Part shown: positions 30,020-53,047 of the stretch, piece by piece
Layout: every line of letters begins with the position of its first letter
How positions within the stretch are numbered: position 1 is the stretch's first letter
Source: Candidatus Aenigmatarchaeota archaeon
Lineage (GTDB): Archaea > Aenigmatarchaeota > Aenigmatarchaeia > QMZP01
DNA: 64,000 bases
NCBI GenBank assembly: GCA_043824495.1
Contig: JBDRSV010000024.1
Location: forward strand, 64,001-128,000
Reading direction: 5' to 3'
Program-made: the position numbers and the translations under genes
Notes under the pieces: generated by a model
What the model was told of the DNA's origin: nothing
Databases searched by the model: none
Seen by the model: the letters and a program-made list of their open reading frames with translations, nothing else

Positions 30020-30085
30020 AAACAGGTATTCAAGAAGAGTCAATTCCTTCTGCCTGTTTTTAATTTGTCTAATTAAAGGGATATA
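30020..30085 (+). repeat. Island-end composite signal, copy 1: hairpin (30020-30059) plus TTGTCTAATTAAAGGGATATA (30065-30085)
   Basis: Read directly; the 21-mer is identical to 63343-63363. Confidence 0.9.
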
Positions 30086-44051: not shown

Positions 44052-44276
44052 GTCCCCTCCAGGATTGATTGTTAGAAAAAATACTAGTATAATCACTCTC
44101 GTTAATTGACATTTCTGTCTTTCGTTGTCGTAGAGTATTGATTCCTAAATTACAGATGATGACTTTACCTCGAACAAGAATCTTGTGCCAGGTGCTAAAA
44201 GTTGTCAGCGATGATAAATGTGGAACATGATGCATAGAATTTAACCTAAAATTTTATAAACCTATACAAAACCTTT

Positions 44277-44778: not shown

Positions 44779-47229
44779 ACCACATCACCTTTTCAGGCTT
44801 TGCAGATTTTTACTTCAGAAGCGTCATCTTTTTGCTTTCCGTCAGGCTGGCCGTTTGCAACCGATAGAAGTACATACCGGACGCGACGGCCTTACCGTAG
44901 CGGTCGGTTCCGTCCCAGCTAACCTGATGTGTTCCTTCGGGCTGGGACCCGTTGACGAGAGTGGCAACGTTGCGGCCGAGGATATCAAAGACCTCTAGCT
45001 TTACGTCTCCTCCCTGAGTCAACTGATAGGAAATCACGGTTCCGGCGTTGAAGGGGTTCGGGTAGTTCTGGTTCAAGCTGAATGATGTAGGAACGGCTCC
45101 TGTTGTCTTGTACGCGATGTTCAGCGTACCTAATGGAATCCACCCAGCCGGAACTGTCCGGCTGTTGTTGATCTCGTCAGCTATCGTTTTGGCCAACTCG
45201 TGATCGCCGAATGGATCGTCGATCAAGTTGTCGCAGTATGTTACCGCCTGTGACACAGTCGCGCCGTCATCGCTAATCACAGCGGTTTGTGCCAGTTTGC
45301 CGCTAGCGACATTGAGTAGCAAAGCCATGAGTTGCTGTCTGGCTCGATCAATCATGTCAACGCTGCCCTTGAGGTTCAGCAACGTCTTCGCGACTTCGAG
45401 CTTGTCTTCACAAAGATCCGACACGGGTGGATCGTACACGACGACCTCGTTCACTGCGTTCGAGTTGAAGTGGCCCGCGATGAGGTCGAGATAGCTACAC
45501 AGAGTTGAAGCATCGATTTGCGCGCGGCCATTCCCACCAGTAGCGACGCCGACGTTGTGTTTCCAGAAGCCGATTGTTCGTTGTTCTCCAGCGTCTGACG
45601 GGCATCCCAATTCAAAGTCGATTTGGGCTGTGCCTTCACAATCGAGATCGACGGACTGTTCGCTCGGAAATGCCGTATACCCGAGGGGGCCAACAAATGA
45701 TACCATGTAGCTGGCCTCACCCGGGAGGTTCTCGAAATCGTAGTAACCGGCTTCATCAGTCACAGCCGATTCTACAAGTACACCGGTGGCATCGAAGACA
45801 TCAATCGTGATACCAAGAACAGAGCAGTCAGCACTCAGTGTGCCCTCAATTGCGGCGAAGCATTCTTCCTCTCCACCTCCGCATGCACACGTTCCATCTT
45901 CCACCTCAATGGCGGTGATGGTGTTGTCGTAGGCGTCCTTTGACCAGACGACGGTCAACGGCGCGAAGTTGATGACGTCGCATTCGAGATCCTCATCCCG
46001 ACCACCGATCGTCGCGAAGTCACTGAGATACACGCCCGTTGTCTTGTCAATGCGAACGATGTTGCCCAGACCATCGCGCCCGATGTAAAGGGTGTTCCCC
46101 GTCCCAACAATAACACCACTTATTCGATCCAGTGTATTGCCGGCCGCGTCGGTCGGATACAACGTTCCCAGATAGGCTCCCGAGCCCGCATCGAAGTGGT
46201 CAATGCCCGTTGATACATCATCGGAAACCCAGACACTGTTATCCGTCGCATCAAAGCCAATGCCGTCGATGAAACAGAAGCCCGGTGTTACCACAGAAAA
46301 CTGGAAAGTGGCTACGCCGGTGGTGGGATCGATGAGATACACGTTCGCCGGACATTCGTTGTCACTGCCTCCCCAGATCATGTTGCGCGTATTGTCCCAT
46401 GCAATAGCGCCGATCGAAACTGGTGTGCCATCCGGTTTGAAAATGGAAACGAAGCCGAGATCGGTGCCGAATTTGTCTATCGAGTAGAGAGTTGGGTCGA
46501 AAGAGTTGGTGTAGAAAATCACACCATCACATCCAACTGCAACACCGATACCGACACCAGACGAGCTTGGAACAGGAACTGTGACGTTCGTGATGACATC
46601 ACCGGGAGCTGCCATTGACGTAGCGGTGATAGCGGTGAAGAGGCAGAACACAACAAGCGCAGTGAAAGCTGTGAGACGCTTCATGGATTTTTATTCCTTA
46701 GGTTGTGAGGGAAATATGACCCTCCGGGTTTGTTTTTCGATTAGTTTCTGATTGTTTGTCGTTTACCACGTTTCCAAGTTAAGGTCCGCGAATCGCTATT
46801 TTCATTGGCATCCTCTCTTTGGGTTAATGTTGTCCGCACAAATTGCGGGATTAAAAGAAGGAAAGACACAAAAGATAGAGTATGTCTTATGTAGACTGAG
46901 AGTAAAATCATTCGAAGAATAAAGCTAATACTATTAAAACAAACATGCATGTTTGATGTGTTTCTTTTCATGTTTTTTGTGTTAGCCAATGTACCGTTTC
47001 TATGGTTAATTGGATTGATTGAGTTGCAATCAATACAAATTTAAATGATGTTCGAATGAGTAGCATGATTTAAATTGTATACAAAAATTGACGTTGATTC
47101 ATCGTCGTTTTTTTGTGTTTTGGTATTTTTTTTGATTCTAGCTTGTCGCTTTTGTCAAGTCTTTAACTCAAGTATATAGCTTACAGGTATTTAAATGTTT
47201 TCTAACACATTTTTTTTAATTTTCTTTCT
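44736..47229 (-). mobile_element. Foreign island 3 (T9SS-tailed protein and its upstream region)
   Basis: GC-rich gene between motif copies 3 and 4. Confidence 0.65.
44810..46684 (-). CDS. Secreted protein: beta-propeller-like N-terminus, Ig/prealbumin-like domain, C-terminal FlgD-Ig / T9SS type A sorting-like domain
   Basis: Signal peptide; C-terminus FSLNQNYPNPFNAGTVISYQL...LEVFDILGRNVATLV...WDGTD...VASGMYFYRL...KKMTLLK. Confidence 0.85.
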   Translation of the reverse strand: MKRLTAFTALVVFCLFTAITATSMAAPGDVITNVTVPVPSSSGVGIGVAVGCDGVIFYTNSFDPTLYSIDKFGTDLGFVSIFKPDGTPVSIGAIAWDNTRNMIWGGSDNECPANVYLIDPTTGVATFQFSVVTPGFCFIDGIGFDATDNSVWVSDDVSTGIDHFDAGSGAYLGTLYPTDAAGNTLDRISGVIVGTGNTLYIGRDGLGNIVRIDKTTGVYLSDFATIGGRDEDLECDVINFAPLTVVWSKDAYDNTITAIEVEDGTCACGGGEEECFAAIEGTLSADCSVLGITIDVFDATGVLVESAVTDEAGYYDFENLPGEASYMVSFVGPLGYTAFPSEQSVDLDCEGTAQIDFELGCPSDAGEQRTIGFWKHNVGVATGGNGRAQIDASTLCSYLDLIAGHFNSNAVNEVVVYDPPVSDLCEDKLEVAKTLLNLKGSVDMIDRARQQLMALLLNVASGKLAQTAVISDDGATVSQAVTYCDNLIDDPFGDHELAKTIADEINNSRTVPAGWIPLGTLNIAYKTTGAVPTSFSLNQNYPNPFNAGTVISYQLTQGGDVKLEVFDILGRNVATLVNGSQPEGTHQVSWDGTDRYGKAVASGMYFYRLQTASLTESKKMTLLK

Positions 47230-47321
47230 TTTATCCCTTTAAATAGACATATAAAAAGGCAAACGGGCGAAGATTTGGAGCCAAACTCTTCTTGATGTCT
47301 CACCTCCGCCCGTTAAATGCC
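47230..47321 (-). repeat. Island-end composite signal, copy 4: motif 47230-47250 (3 mismatches) plus hairpin 47258-47321
   Basis: TTTATCCCTTTAAATAGACAT; ggcaaacgggcg...cgcccgttaaatgcc; followed on the minus strand by TTTTTAT. Confidence 0.85.
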
Positions 47322-50300
47322 GTTGTCCGGCCTATCAATTTACCCGCCGGTTAGGTGAGCACATGTGCTCGTGTCCCAGAGGCGCATGTTTTCATGCCCT
47401 CCTTTGCCGGGTTCTTACGCGAACGTGCTGCTTGACCGAGATAATGTAGCTGCCAGATTCCCCACAACCTTGTTATTGGTGGAACCGCGACAGCGGTCGG
47501 TCCAGTCCGTATGCATCGTAGCCTCACTTGGTGAAGGACTGCGAATCAAGAGACGGGGATTCAGAAGAATCCCCGTCTCACGAGTTGACGGTTGGTACGA
47601 GATATATCAAAGGAAGTCTTTATGCCATTGGGTGCATTCCGAAACCTTTAGCCTCGTCCGTCTCCGAGGGATCCTATCAAAGGTTTCATAAAGGAAATTT
47701 CATGGACCTCGTTACGATAGGATCGGAGTGGCGTAAAGCCACGGCCAGAACCTCGAGGTCCCCCAGGATAAGATCACCGTTTGAATATGAGTCAGCGGTG
47801 AACGTAAGGGTGCTGGCGATTCTTCTTCGCATTCAAACCCTCCAGGGAACACTTCGTAATTTGTGTTGTCAGCGGCTGTTTACGAATCGGCGGTGATCGT
47901 TTCCACCACGGTACATGTCGGCGTGGTGACAAACGATGAAGAAGCGACTTCAAAACGCGCGCGGCCATTGCTCGGCGGCGGCGAATGAGCCCAGGCATTG
48001 ACGGCGGTCGCGGCGGTATTCATCCAGGAAGCGACCACTGGTGACCCGCGAAGGGTCGGTAATCGGTTCATAGAGCAAGCTCCATTTCTTCCGATAGGAA
48101 AATTCCAATCCACTTTACAAACTCTCGCCTAAACAGAAAGTATTGTCACATAACTTTCCGTCGCAAAAGAGAATGTGAAGAGGAAACAATTTCGTACACC
48201 TCGTCAAGAGATCGTCTCCATTTTCACCCTACATGGGCTAGGCGAGAGGATAGACCAGTTGCTGATAGAGATGTAGAGGGAACCGTTTTCATCCGAAGAT
48301 CTCTCCCGTCCCTCAGGGAGTAAGTTGCTCGTCCACCAGGTTCCCATACCAAGGGAGCTGGCAACTCTGCCATTCTCTCTATCCGACTCTCTGTTGTCAT
48401 CGCCACTACGGCAACAACTCTTAGCCTATCCGGCGTAGGATTATGAGAGTGTAGAGCGAATTCCTCGTTCCATGTTTGTTCTGTATCGCTGCCTGTTATG
48501 ATATCCAATCCTGAAAACGGGATTGGGTCAGCGGTATAAACAATACAGGAACCATATATGAGGTAGCAGAGTGTCATGATTCCCAGCATGACAACTCCTT
48601 ACAAGGGCACATGGTTATATGGTAAATGCTCTCTCCGTCAACAAATCGTGCCCTCTAAGACATGTTTAGGAGAGAAAGGCGACAACTCATGAAGTGTTCT
48701 TCAGGTGGACCCGTCATCACTGTTATTGCGTTGACGGCCTTCTCCTTGACCCGGACTTAGACGTGTGGCTTTCGGTGTTTTCGCGGCGCGTTTCTGCTGT
48801 TTTGGACTACGCTTCTTGTTGCTCGGAAGCCCGTCTCGGGCACCACCGTGACACGTCATGAAAGACCTCGTTTGTGAGGAGTTCAGTTCAAGCTTGTGCT
48901 GGAACTGTTTGGAACGAGGAATTGTTACTCTTTACGGCGAGCGATTGTGTGTCATCGTAACTCCTTGACAATGGTTTCCACAAGCTCCAAAATAAAAAAG
49001 AGCTGTTGTTTTCAAATTCAGTTGGGAATCTCCTAGCCCGCCCCCAGAACTGACTAGAGGAGATCCCCAACTTTTGTACAGCGCACCCCGTGCATTGTTT
49101 TCAGGGTGGAGGGGCCCGGCGGTCAACTGAGCCCCTCACTGGACGAATCGGTCACAGATAACATGTTACGCATTACCGACTCGAAATCTATGCCACGGCA
49201 GTAGATGGAAGTGGTCGCATCTACCGCCGGGCTTCACGACGTTGTGCATTTTGTCGCCTTCAGCCTTACACAACGCCGTTATTTCCCCACCCACAGGGAA
49301 TTTAATATCGCGGGGCCTCACTCAGGAGACCCCGCTTCCGTTGGGTTTACTACCGAATTGTTCGGTAGCGTTCTTCCACGACAGACATACGCACATGCGC
49401 ACGTCTTCATTTCTTTGAGGACCTACTCATCTCCGATTTGAGTAGGTCCTCGGCTCCCCACAACCCCCCGATCAGCACCGGGAATTTTTTTGAGGGGAAA
49501 TCTGAGCAGATATCTCAGACTCCCCTCCCGTCAGGTCTACCGACCAGCACTTCCGGTTGGACGCCGGAAATTCTTTATTAGAAGGGGTTTCCCCTCTCCA
49601 AGAAACCCCTTCCTCTTCGGCGTAGCGCGTCTCACGCGCTTTAGTGCATCGATCCCCACCGATCAGGTAAAACCCTTGGATGGTTCTCTCCCCGAACCCC
49701 CACTGAAATATTTTGGAACCCCTCATAGATCCCCGTAATCTCCGAGAGGTTCCGACAGCAGCACCATACAAATGGGACTACCGTGACAATCAAAAATACC
49801 GGAATCCACCGCGTCAGAAGAGGATTCCGGTATTCTACATCGCTGGTTGTGTTGAGAGCTTACCCCTTACTGGTCTTAACGAGTATGTTACGTCGGACTT
49901 CCTTTCACCAAATATACGGGTCACTACAGAATACCCGATCGATCCGCTTTGTTGTCTTAATCTCACCAGCGGATAGTGACGCGGTTACAGCCAGCGATTT
50001 CGCCTTTATACAACAGGCGTCTCCAAACCAAAATGGAAATTGGAGTTGTTGCTTCCACACTTCCGGATTTCCCCCTCCGGTAAACTCTAAGGTACTGATA
50101 GGTGACCGCTCGTGTTTCTTGTGTTCGCAATTGCCGATTGCATCAAGCTCTTCGTAGATCTAGATCTGGAAGTAATTAGCAAACGATCACAATAAACAGA
50201 CAACTGGGAGAAGTCCATTTCTACCAGTACCTGGATTTTCTAACCCTCGGGAGGTGTGTACAAGCCTAAGCAGAGTTTGTCCTGTTGAATTGGCCCCGAG

Positions 50301-50835
50301 GGTAAGTGGCCTTCCGGAAGAGAATTGGTGAGGTCCTGTAACAGAACTCTATCTCATTCCGGGGTAAAGCTCAAGGCACAGCCAGAAGGAGACGTATTAC
50401 CTTGAGAAGTTGGTCTCCCGAGTGAAGAAATTCGAGATGTCCCATCGATGAAGGACATCTCTTCTCCACTCGGGCTCATTCGTCAGCCTGGAAGGAGAAG
50501 TGCAAGAGTTTTCGCGCAATTACTCTCTCTCCTCCCGGGAAATTTATGACCTCCTGGTCCGAAACTTGTGCCGCGGTAAACCAGAAGGCGTAACTGCTAG
50601 GCTATGTGACGGCCACAGCAGTAGGGATCGAATCCAATACACGAAAGACAGCTAAGACTAACTCTGTCTCGTGTGGTTTACGAGTAAAATTCAGAAATCG
50701 ATAGTCTTCGGCCTCTTCGAGGGAAACTGCTTAAGCGCTTAATTGCAGCGCGTTATGTTTCCTGGTAAGTGACCTGTTCTCTAGGATGTACCGAAGGCTA
50801 ACTTAGTTAGTCTCGGGAAATTCGCGTGTGATTGG
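47251..50835 (-). ncRNA. Candidate very large structured non-coding RNA region (island 4); strand and number of RNAs uncertain
   Basis: About 3.6 kb with no ORF longer than about 125 aa; many perfect 10-14 bp stems including a long-range 14-bp pair (48459-48472 with 48910-48923); no known RNA family recognised. Confidence 0.5.
48224..48589 (-). CDS. Possible small membrane-anchored protein inside island 4
   Basis: SD aaggag 6 nt before ATG and a hydrophobic N-terminus, but it overlaps predicted stems. Confidence 0.3.
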   Translation of the reverse strand: MLGIMTLCYLIYGSCIVYTADPIPFSGLDIITGSDTEQTWNEEFALHSHNPTPDRLRVVAVVAMTTESRIERMAELPAPLVWEPGGRATYSLRDGRDLRMKTVPSTSLSATGLSSRLAHVG

Positions 50836-50861
50836 TAGAAATGAAACATGAAATGTCCTTA

Positions 50862-50869
50862 TATATAAA
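50862..50869 (-). promoter_or_regulatory. Candidate archaeal TATA box (TTTATATA) pointing into island 4
   Basis: Lies about 25-30 nt before the AT-to-GC transition at about 50835; weak because the region is AT-rich and near-palindromic. Confidence 0.35.
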
Positions 50870-51004
50870 TGTAATTTAATTACTTAAATAGGTTGATGGA
50901 TAGCTTTAAAAAGGTACTATTAAAATTATTTTTTTGTGAAGGGATCGATATACCAAGTGCTTCCAAAAATAAAGAGTAGAAAAAAATAAGAGTGAAAAAA
51001 GCAA

Positions 51005-53047
51005 TTAACCAATGAATTCAACCTTTTCAAAACTGCCGTTTTCTTCAAATTTGTCTAATGTTGATACGAAAATTATTACTTTTTTCTTGTCTTCTTTACA
51101 GATTCTAGCTGCTTGTTGTATTACCATGTTCTTGATTCTGTCTGAAGCACATATGAAATGATTGCTTTGTTTCAAGTCCTGATAAATTAATTCTCTATCA
51201 TCTGTGTCTTCAACCATTATAGTTAATTCTTTTCCATCGTTCTGTAAATATATTCTGTTACCTTCTTGTTCACTCTTCCATCCGACTTCATTAAAGGTCT
51301 GCATGATACCTGTTAAGTTCAATTCTTTTTTCTGTGTTGAGTTACCAAATTTATTAGTGAAAACTTTCTCTCCTATATTTGTAAGAAAGTAATAACATAA
51401 TCTATTCTTCTTAACTTTAGCATCAGCTGAATCAACTAATCCGTTATAAGTTAAGTTCTCAACCTTTTTCTTGAAAGTTGCTCCTGACATTTTTACATTT
51501 GTGTATATCTGAGATGTGTAAGCAGCACTACCATTACCAATGGTTTTCATCATAGCCCACTCTTGTTCTCCTAAATCCTCAATTGGAAGAGAGTTTATGA
51601 ATTCTTCTTCCTTTACTGGAGGAGGTGAGTAGCTATCTTCTTTAGCTATTCTGTCTTTCATGTGCTCTCTGATATCATCATCTACAATAGAGTTCTTAAC
51701 CAGTTTAGCCTTGTCGAATTTTACAAGGAATGGTTCTGGGAAATTCATAGAGTGTCTCAAAAGCATGAAACCGTGACCTACTGGCAGTCTTCTTAGATAC
51801 TTACCTTCTTCTCTAGAATCAAGACCAAGCATGTTTGAAGCGTCTTGAATATCTGAAGTATGTTTTGTATCCAAACCTAGATTCATGTATATATGAGTAG
51901 AAGTATTACCAATTGCTGGATATGAAACTAAAGATGGATGCTGATCTATGTATATCATTCCTAATCCTAATTCTCTAATTTCTCTAAATATTAATTCTAC
52001 AACGGTTTCTGATCCTAATTTGGCAGATTTTTCTCTGTTAAGAACATGATGAGCTTCTTCCATCACTATACATCCTATGACTTCTTCTTTTCCGCCTTCT
52101 ACGAGTAACCAATCTCTTATCCACTGTAGAATTATTTCTATGATAAAGCTCTTATCATTAACATCAAGAGCATCTAATTCTAGAATTGTTACCTTTCCTT
52201 TCTTGAAGAAATCAGATGGTTTTATACCTTCTACACAGTCGAATATATGACCTGTGTCTTTGAAGCATAATGACTCTAATGGTCTTTCAGCTGTTGCTAA
52301 CCAGTTTCTTTCTCTTGTTGGCAGCTTACCTTCTGCATATTCTGCTAAGTAATCTTTAAGGTCAAACAGTGTTGGATTTTTCTTTTCCTTGAAAACTCCA
52401 TCTAAAGCTTTCAAGATTACGTGTCTTCCACCACCGAGTAACCAGTAAGAATGATCGAATATTGAAGAGAACTCTTTCATCCACTGTGTTTGACTAATTC
52501 CTTTAGGACCTTTCAGTGGATTGAATTTGAAAGGAGCTACGCCTCTTCCGATTGTGTAAATATCTATTTTGTCTTTAATTTTAGTTGATAGTAAATCTTT
52601 ATAATTTCTCTTAGAGAAATCAAATATCAAAACAGGAATATCCTTTTCTGCTAATTCTTCAATTAAGTTATATGAAATATTTGTTTTACCATAACCAGAT
52701 GAACCAAATATTCCTATATGTGTAAGTAAGTTTTTCTCTTCTAGCATGATTGGATATAAACCCTTTCTTCCGTATAAAACATCACCTAATCTAATTGTTC
52801 CTTTAGCTGCTGCTTCTTGGCTAGGAGGTTCCATTAGTACTGTATCTCTTAGATCTTCATCAGCAGAAACTGCGGCTTTTATAACATCAAGTAGTTCGAA
52901 GATTCTTTGTCTTACATCTTCGTTTCCAACTAAGTAAGCTTTACTTAATCTCAAAGCTTTGTCTTTACCCAAGATTGGAGTAAGCTTCTTAATTTCATCT
53001 GCAATTAGTTTTTCTTGAATATTAATCATTTGTACCACCCAAATCAT
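51005..53047 (-). CDS. HerA/VirB4/TraD-like ATPase with C-terminal winged-HTH-like region
   Basis: Walker A GSSGYGKT, Walker B IVMEEAH, REIRELGLGMIYIDQHPS. Confidence 0.8.
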   Translation of the reverse strand: MIWVVQMINIQEKLIADEIKKLTPILGKDKALRLSKAYLVGNEDVRQRIFELLDVIKAAVSADEDLRDTVLMEPPSQEAAAKGTIRLGDVLYGRKGLYPIMLEEKNLLTHIGIFGSSGYGKTNISYNLIEELAEKDIPVLIFDFSKRNYKDLLSTKIKDKIDIYTIGRGVAPFKFNPLKGPKGISQTQWMKEFSSIFDHSYWLLGGGRHVILKALDGVFKEKKNPTLFDLKDYLAEYAEGKLPTRERNWLATAERPLESLCFKDTGHIFDCVEGIKPSDFFKKGKVTILELDALDVNDKSFIIEIILQWIRDWLLVEGGKEEVIGCIVMEEAHHVLNREKSAKLGSETVVELIFREIRELGLGMIYIDQHPSLVSYPAIGNTSTHIYMNLGLDTKHTSDIQDASNMLGLDSREEGKYLRRLPVGHGFMLLRHSMNFPEPFLVKFDKAKLVKNSIVDDDIREHMKDRIAKEDSYSPPPVKEEEFINSLPIEDLGEQEWAMMKTIGNGSAAYTSQIYTNVKMSGATFKKKVENLTYNGLVDSADAKVKKNRLCYYFLTNIGEKVFTNKFGNSTQKKELNLTGIMQTFNEVGWKSEQEGNRIYLQNDGKELTIMVEDTDDRELIYQDLKQSNHFICASDRIKNMVIQQAARICKEDKKKVIIFVSTLDKFEENGSFEKVEFIG

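Follow-up and report, generated by a model that had tools for sequence, protein, structure and literature searches.

The RNAs OLE, ROOL and GOLLD are free of open reading frames (ORFs), hundreds of nucleotides long, strongly structured, and often encoded on mobile or foreign DNA. These families are defined by covariation across many genomes and share the property of a conserved multi-junction core. Other non-coding RNAs are built serially: the CsrB/RsmZ sponges carry many consecutive stem-loops on one transcript with a terminator at its end, and phage and prophage leader arrays, such as the dicF-type precursors, are gene-free runs of successive hairpin modules with processing or terminator hairpins between them. 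Composition screens by Klein, Misulovin and Eddy in 2002 reportedly uncovered G+C-rich islands of non-coding RNA in A+T-rich archaea. Here we analyze a GC-rich, ORF-free block of DNA at positions 47257-50855 of a 64-kb window from the genome of a symbiotic member of the Aenigmatarchaeota (DPANN), recovered from a groundwater metagenome. The window is the whole stretch of DNA analyzed (contig C24:64001-128000 of the host genome, G000), and coordinates are positions within it unless a contig is named. The host assembly comprises ~1.0 Mb in 29 contigs, is 80% complete and has a GC content of 0.36; the genomes of its relatives are all ~1 Mb.

The block resembles each of these systems in part. Like OLE, ROOL and GOLLD, it is ORF-free and strongly structured, and their size range includes its putative 0.8-kb middle unit. 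It differs from them in that its core strings together simple hairpins, it has no homologs among the sequences searched and, as also in comparison with HEARO, it matches no Rfam model, even at E<=10. With the CsrB/RsmZ sponges it shares the succession of stem-loops; its core is, however, two to three times longer, the sequence GGA is present in only 3 of 24 loops, and no partner protein is indicated. It has the serial, gene-free layout of the dicF-type arrays but no match to DicF or phage records and no phage genes beside it. Finally, it is a structured GC-rich island in an AT-rich archaeal genome, as are those of the composition screens. Those islands are native and conserved among relatives, whereas the block is absent from a genome of the same genus and sits in a frame of imported DNA.

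That frame resembles the cassettes of integrons. Integron cassettes, including ORF-less ones and those of archaeal integrons (PMC9668308), are co-oriented, carry a variable hairpin by a short conserved 3' site, differ in cargo between close relatives at one site, and bring bacterial gene content into archaea. Recombination sites of this kind (attC), of restricted diversity, have been reported in Aenigmatarchaeota (Ghaly et al. 2022, PMC9668308).

We find that the block is non-coding, over-structured, chromosomal, framed like the other cassettes of its genome, and without relative in the sister species. The explanation we favor, at a confidence of about one half, is that it is non-coding foreign cargo whose minus strand encodes at least one hairpin-rich RNA. 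A first-pass annotation of the window had instead proposed a single giant RNA of a new class or a cDNA copy of a structured RNA replicon; both proposals are weighed below.

Results and Discussion

The block is chromosomal and non-coding

The block has GC 0.49, compared with 0.30-0.36 on either side and 0.36 for the host, and makes up 0.36% of the host genome. It is flanked by a T9SS-type gene and the herA operon. The GC jump is sharp at both borders, as it would be in an assembly chimera or a piece of a contaminating contig. This explanation is scarcely credible given that an independent 48-kb Logan contig covers 44149-54000, bridging both borders, at a uniform depth of 42 (41.7 for the neighboring contig). 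Because that contig spans both junctions at a depth equal to its neighbor's, the junctions are not an assembly artefact. In addition, the arrangement of motif and island described below is seen 19 times in this genome and also in related ones. The block is part of the archaeal chromosome.

By four independent tests, the block has no coding capacity. Within 47251-50870, ORFs reach at most 124 aa from start to stop and 142 aa from stop to stop, bearing out the ORF poverty that had first drawn attention to this stretch; reassigning TGA, TAG or TAA to sense, singly or in pairs, did not consistently open a long frame in the block. Scanned in 450-nt windows from 47176 to 50776, position-specific base composition showed no period of three, the sole exception being a weak blip at 47851 (47851-48300, chi2 23.6). 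Flanking genes, host or foreign, are all strongly periodic in the same analysis. We also scored the best frame per 180-nt window with a codon log-odds model whose training set was 27 genes from other GC-rich islands. The block averaged -2.5 and peaked at 5.3, with no window above 10, close to the -4.1 of its shuffled version; coding islands kept out of training scored 8-12. Six-frame read-through translations of the block matched no Pfam family at E<=1. The only ORF of the block ever called as a gene, at 48224-48589 on the minus strand (121 aa), has a random-looking translation and no relative among 5.8 billion clustered proteins, its cluster consisting of this organism alone.

These results bear on the possibility of a decayed island, in which former protein genes were broken by frameshifts and stops. 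Such an origin would agree with the frame that the block shares with coding islands and with the one periodicity blip. Residual codon signal is, however, absent in every frame throughout the block, as are periodicity and Pfam matches in the read-through frames, and because all three signals are absent the block is not a set of recently broken genes. Its GC is still 0.49 in a 0.36 genome, which leaves little time for decay, and neutral decay does not build perfect 13-bp hairpins, here 20 times as frequent as in the genome. Degraded protein genes, which the first-pass annotation had named as a competing possibility, thus left no trace in the read-through frames, codon model or periodicity, and we consider decay highly improbable.

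Motif-anchored cassettes across the genome

The block belongs to a set of GC-rich islands (GC 0.45-0.51) that each have, at exactly one end, a copy of a ~25-nt motif consisting of TATCCCTTTAATTAGACA followed by ATATAAA. We count 19 in the host genome, at 30058, 42295, 44275, 44714, 47229 and 63337 in the window and at 13 further sites on contigs C5, C11, C24 and C29. Conservation around the motif stops after ~30 nt. The island DNA adjoining it forms a hairpin of unique sequence, a rule that holds in 17 of the 19 islands: the 60 nt at the junction have a mean folding z-score of -3.08, against -0.37 for DNA 300 nt deeper (Wilcoxon p 3e-5). In 18 of 18 coding islands, essentially every long ORF points its 3' end at the motif. 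The order within a cassette is therefore gene(s), unique hairpin, TTTATAT and motif, and the islands end ~50-150 nt upstream of the first start codon.

Like the coding islands, the block carries a junction hairpin and the motif, and it is the sole motif-anchored island without genes. The other ORF-free GC island of the host genome is the 23S rRNA gene (C3:6545-11000). That gene is 4,456 nt long, compared with the 2,987 positions of the model, and contains ~1.5 kb of insertions, possibly introns.

The cassette arrangement extends beyond the host. Among 24 genomes of the family, 16 carry the motif, in up to 19 copies, whereas a reversed control occurs 0-1 times. The same cassette rules hold in a sister species of the same genus (G001). 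At one syntenic motif site (G001:C68 and G000 C5:111501-115200) the host flank is conserved, at up to 89% at the protein level, and the cargo is unrelated. The M32 carboxypeptidase of an island neighboring the block is 70% identical to a Zixibacteria protein. The block itself appears foreign and recent on the basis of its GC (0.49 versus 0.36), its lack of a match in the same-genus genome, and the unrelated cargo at syntenic sites. The junction and polarity that the block shares with the coding islands, together with its absence from the sister species, support recent, oriented capture of foreign transcription units.

Two further observations concern the motif and its islands. In G008, of a related genus, only 7 nt (TTTGTAT) separate the 3' end of a tRNA-Met gene from the motif copy behind it (G008:C27 4016-4114). 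The motif is thus not restricted to imported operons and can also come after a native gene for a stable RNA. In the host, a conserved element of ~200 nt, beginning with a TATA-like box, lies at the gene-start end of seven islands (window 44075-44271, minus strand; C24:49073-49269; C24:90007-90213; C5:1-189; C5:14584-14780; C5:47241-47426; C5:68468-68685). Its internal hairpins differ in sequence between copies and it has no Rfam match. It may be the shared promoter and leader of the imported operons.

The block folds far better than chance

Folding z-scores were determined against dinucleotide shuffles in 150-nt windows on both strands. The block has mean z-scores of -1.85 (plus) and -2.06 (minus), compared with about -0.3 to -0.9 for flanking genes (Mann-Whitney p 0.002-0.003). 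Strong structure is confined to ~0.85 kb, and z is moderate in the rest of the block. At 48990-49850, the minimum free energy (MFE) on the minus strand is -399.8 kcal/mol versus -300.7 for shuffles (z -13.3) and on the plus strand -317.6 versus -247.1 (z -9.3); zero shuffles fold as well. The block is far more structured than chance on both strands, which is what the first-pass annotation had anticipated from such a comparison.

Within this core, the minus strand is predicted to form the chain of 24 stem-loops listed in Table 1, most of which have no U-run directly after them. The two strands are asymmetric: minus forms 41 G-U pairs and plus 12, out of totals of 287 and 250 pairs. Of the 20 perfect hairpins in the genome with stems of at least 11 bp, four fall in the block. 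The individual stems named in the first-pass annotation are all present, including three perfect 13-bp hairpins, a number far above chance expectation for 3.6 kb, and its observation that stems on the right lean to minus and some on the left to plus is reproduced by the z-scores. The 14-bp pair 48459-48472/48910-48923 is likewise real. Inverted repeats of at least 14 bp arose in 1 of 60 dinucleotide shuffles, and the helix is retained in the MFE of both strands (domain z -3.8 plus, -5.9 minus). A 10-bp pair at 48122/48239 also exists, but its length is expected by chance. The 14-bp helix, which had been taken to imply nested multi-domain folding, closes a domain of ~465 nt; the core is built of simple hairpins in series.

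The same data make it unlikely that the product is a single structured RNA of giant size (~3.6 kb) that would exceed OLE, ROOL and GOLLD and form a new class. The whole block is ORF-free and flanked by a TATA-like box and a terminal hairpin with T-run, the long-range helix closes a domain of 465 nt, and overall z-scores are below those of the flanks, all of which speak for such an RNA. However, two internal hairpin-plus-oligo-U signals on the same strand (49834-49792 and 49082-48985) would split the block into units of ~1.05, 0.8 and 1.75 kb. Its structure is concentrated in 0.85 kb and consists of serial simple hairpins rather than multi-junction folds, the left half leans to the other strand, and neither an Rfam match nor a homolog was found.

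A DNA-level element from a plasmid or virus, such as an origin, a single-strand initiation site or recombination hairpins, acting as folded DNA or as protein-binding palindromes, is a minor possibility that deserves more weight. Perfect palindromes are numerous, with three 13-bp stems, and both strands fold far beyond chance. The cassette system itself pairs a hairpin with a conserved site, and tyrosine recombinases account for seven matches in the genome, one of them lying ~300 nt from a copy of the motif. On the other side, the block contains no iterons or direct repeats, no AT-rich unwinding region and no internal motif copies, and no replication or partition gene adjoins it. The G-U asymmetry and the better core z-score on one strand fit a single-stranded reading.

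Chains of hairpins could also arise through repeated abortive captures, in which short 3'-terminal pieces of foreign units, namely their terminator hairpins, became stacked beside the motif. Read from the motif, each island does open with a hairpin of its own, the 24 hairpins chained in the core are unrelated to one another, and relatives have unrelated hairpin-rich DNA adjoining the motif. We nevertheless regard this origin as very unlikely: most hairpins of the chain lack a trailing U-run, there are no motif remnants between them or elsewhere in the block, and its hairpins have nothing in common with the junction hairpins of other islands above background save one 11-mer. This 11-mer (ACTCTTCTTGA, 47285-47295) and a similar inner stem are common to the junction hairpins of the block and of the M20/M32 peptidase island that ends at 30058. 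No other junction hairpin resembles the block above background.

Relatives and comparable DNA

No relative of the block was identified. Searches with blastn returned only the block itself in its own genome and nothing in 40 relatives, including the same-genus genome. In 285 Zixibacteria genomes there were three matches of 24-34 nt at chance level (E ~0.005-0.009), and five named Zixibacteria metagenome-assembled genomes, the INPHARED phages and the PLSDB plasmids had no match. Neither nhmmer nor word-7 blastn detected a relative in 122 fetched loci. Viral, metagenome and genome contig collections, scanned with exact words and with read-through pseudo-proteins as degenerate DNA probes, likewise yielded none. 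A covariance model (R1) built from the single sequence of five core hairpins found no match in 41 relatives and, in 151 Zixibacteria, one 37-nt match at chance level (E 0.016). The block also has no internal direct or tandem repeats. DNA downstream of herA in the sister species gave one 80-nt local alignment, whose score of 20.5, against a shuffle maximum of 19.5, is unconvincing as homology.

Known RNA families were equally unrepresented. Nothing in the 64-kb window reached the Rfam gathering score, while the large-subunit rRNA model recovered the 23S gene elsewhere as a positive control. At E<=10, 46700-51100 gave only three snoRNA-type chance matches (E 4-6). An rRNA or tRNA gene was rejected: models of both are unmatched in the block, no tRNA was found, and neither strand has a convincing T-arm. 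The homolog and Rfam searches that the first-pass annotation had looked to for a family assignment thus provided none.

That the block was copied as cDNA from a viroid-like or virus-like replicon of structured RNA is exceedingly unlikely in the light of these results. The length of the block is near that of small RNA phage genomes, its local hairpins are dense, and the cassettes look bounded like transcripts. Yet six frames contain no polymerase, coat or other protein remnant, the fold is not rod-like overall, and no ribozyme family matches. The genome's only reverse transcriptase is of a retroelement type with its own template and variable repeat, serving a diversity-generating retroelement.

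Gene-free structured DNA next to the motif recurs in two relatives, unrelated in sequence. In G001, 1.15 kb beside a motif on contig C41 has GC 0.50, no coding signal, and a mean z near -3.6 on the sense strand. In G008, herA and the motif are separated by 470 nt of ORF-free, hairpin-rich DNA (z -3.4/-4.1). Neither stretch aligns with the block. The G001 stretch includes, at C41 ~1185-1320, a multi-branched element of ~135 nt with a T-arm-like GGGUUCGAUUCCC, an acceptor-like stem and CCA at its end, which is recognized by neither ARAGORN nor Rfam.

Predicted transcripts and possible roles

We infer transcription of the block, the strand used and the positions of RNA ends from sequence. Minus is the probable sense strand because of cassette polarity, in which the 3' ends of genes face the motif. 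The folding preference of the core, which does not enter into this argument, also points to minus. A candidate promoter of a minus-strand transcript is TTTATATA at 50862-50869, the only TATA-consensus match on the minus strand in 47200-50900, located downstream of the herA oligo-T runs. The first-pass annotation had pointed to this box and to the hairpin with T-run at the motif end, and both are present as it described. By sequence, a GC-rich stem followed by at least five U, as in intrinsic terminators, occurs on minus at 49834-49792, 49082-48985 and 47314-47253.

Transcription would start ~25 nt downstream of the TATA-like box and stop at the hairpin-plus-oligo-U signals at 49792, 48985 and 47253. 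The products would be one to three structured RNAs of ~1.05, 0.8 and 1.75 kb, or a 3.6-kb read-through, and the middle unit (~0.85 kb) would be the chain of 24 stem-loops. A converging RNA from the motif side is also possible: TTTAAATA within the border motif faces the block, and plus carries just one T7 run, at 49485. The features on which these predictions draw are summarized in Table 1.

Table 1. Location of the block, its borders, and its principal structural elements in the 64-kb window
Feature	Position	Strand	Remarks
Border motif copy, TATCCCTTTAAATAGACA plus TATAAAA	47229-47256	+	Marks the 3', motif-proximal end of the block
ORF-free GC-rich cargo block	47257-50855	-	Probable sense strand, from cassette polarity and fold asymmetry
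Junction hairpin, 11-bp stem (47262-47314), then UGCCUUUUUAUAU on minus	47253-47314	-	Terminator-like 3' end at the motif
Perfect 13-bp hairpin, 4-nt loop	47550-47579		Local window prefers plus (z -5.2 versus -2.8)
Domain of ~465 nt	48459-48923		Closed by perfect 14-bp helix 48459-48472/48910-48923
81-nt hairpin (49002-49082, 32 pairs), then UCUUUUUUAUUUU on minus	48985-49082	-	Internal, terminator-like
Hairpin chain, most structured part	49002-49843	-	24 consecutive stem-loops of 3-32 pairs each, short linkers
Perfect 13-bp hairpin	49417-49451		Named in the first-pass annotation
T7 run	49485-49491	+	Sole run of at least 5 T on plus inside the block; possible stop of a plus transcript
Perfect 13-bp hairpin (49795-49834), then UUUUU on minus	49792-49834	-	Internal, intrinsic-terminator-like
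Nested hairpins, 13-bp and 9-bp stems	50417-50500	-	z -5.5 minus, -3.6 plus
TATA-like TTTATATA	50862-50869	-	In host-type AT-rich DNA, ~10-25 nt outside the GC-rich start

Several points weigh against the block being foreign cargo that encodes minus-strand RNAs. It is without the ~200-nt leader of seven other islands; nhmmer detects no copy at its far end, where pairwise similarities are marginal (p 0.01-0.07 before correction). The TATA match sits in AT-rich DNA, where such matches are cheap. The block as a whole favors neither strand (Wilcoxon p 0.67), and several windows left of 48500 prefer plus. Serial long perfect stems are equally typical of DNA-level palindromes and functional RNAs, and, with GGA scarce in the loops, a CsrA-type sponge is not indicated. 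No homolog was found, and therefore zero base pairs are backed by covariation; the case for structured RNA is a thermodynamic one, built on predicted folding. Among public runs, the only holder of the block is a DNA run. Two metatranscriptomes of the same study gave stray contig matches of <90% identity outside the block, which are uninformative on expression.

If the block does encode minus-strand RNAs, our best guess at a role is that a hairpin-chain RNA binds or titrates a protein or nuclease. Just as plausibly, the block is a passenger: a cluster of RNA genes brought from the donor that serves no purpose in the archaeon. A more far-reaching proposal is that members of this family of archaea import whole foreign transcription units in a conserved one-way frame (promoter side, cargo, hairpin and 25-nt motif), that some of these units are long hairpin-chain RNAs, and that the block is the largest known of them, functional as one RNA or a set of RNAs of 0.8-3.6 kb that lacks relatives in current databases and is retained for its function in the archaeon, for example as a decoy or sponge; this we hold to be rather doubtful. 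Were the block transcribed and functional, it would be a hairpin-chain RNA of unusual length that had crossed between domains of life, and the cassette system of these minimal archaea would take up RNA genes besides protein genes. Were it only passenger DNA, it would still be evidence for oriented capture, matching the junction and polarity of 18 coding islands, and a neutral marker for how junctions form.

Capture mechanism and neighboring elements

The cassettes share with those of integrons their co-orientation (18 coding islands) and a variable structured hairpin at the end of each. They differ in lying at ~19 scattered sites rather than in a single array, and in length the block exceeds usual cassettes several-fold. 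An integron-type integrase was not found: in this 80%-complete genome the best match to TIGR02249 reaches 106 of the 265 bits set as the cut-off and is split in two, with the IntI-specific insert skipped. By eye, sequences next to the hairpins do not fit the attC core box GTTRRRY. By analogy the arrangement works like integron cassettes, without these results placing it in the integron family.

Other mobile elements were considered and rejected. An IS6/IS26 translocatable unit is not supported, as the host genome has no match to the IS6-type transposase family DDE_Tnp_IS240, motif conservation spans ~30 nt, and only a small ORF of zinc-ribbon/helix-turn-helix type lies nearby. The 14-bp inverted repeat is not a miniature inverted-repeat transposable element on the evidence of its surroundings, where no target duplication is visible. 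A group II intron or retroelement within the block was dismissed on the absence of an Rfam intron match and of an RVT domain in the six read-through frames. The tyrosine recombinase ORF near a motif copy (~420 aa, C24:46389-47087) lies ~17 kb upstream of the window and ends ~300 nt before the motif at C24:47400; the six other recombinase matches are located elsewhere, and all seven fall below the integron-integrase cut-off.

Repeated hairpins and a retroelement occur elsewhere in the genome. Inside the 54-63 kb island, intergenic hairpin elements precede neighboring genes as pairs that are 84-96% identical (56383-56433/57294-57344 and 59026-59086/59662-59723). The single reverse transcriptase of the host, of the diversity-generating retroelement type, is on a separate contig (C10:71679-75323), next to serS. 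It is a group-II-like enzyme of 350 aa, accompanied by a 47-nt pair of template and variable repeats that differ mostly at A positions.

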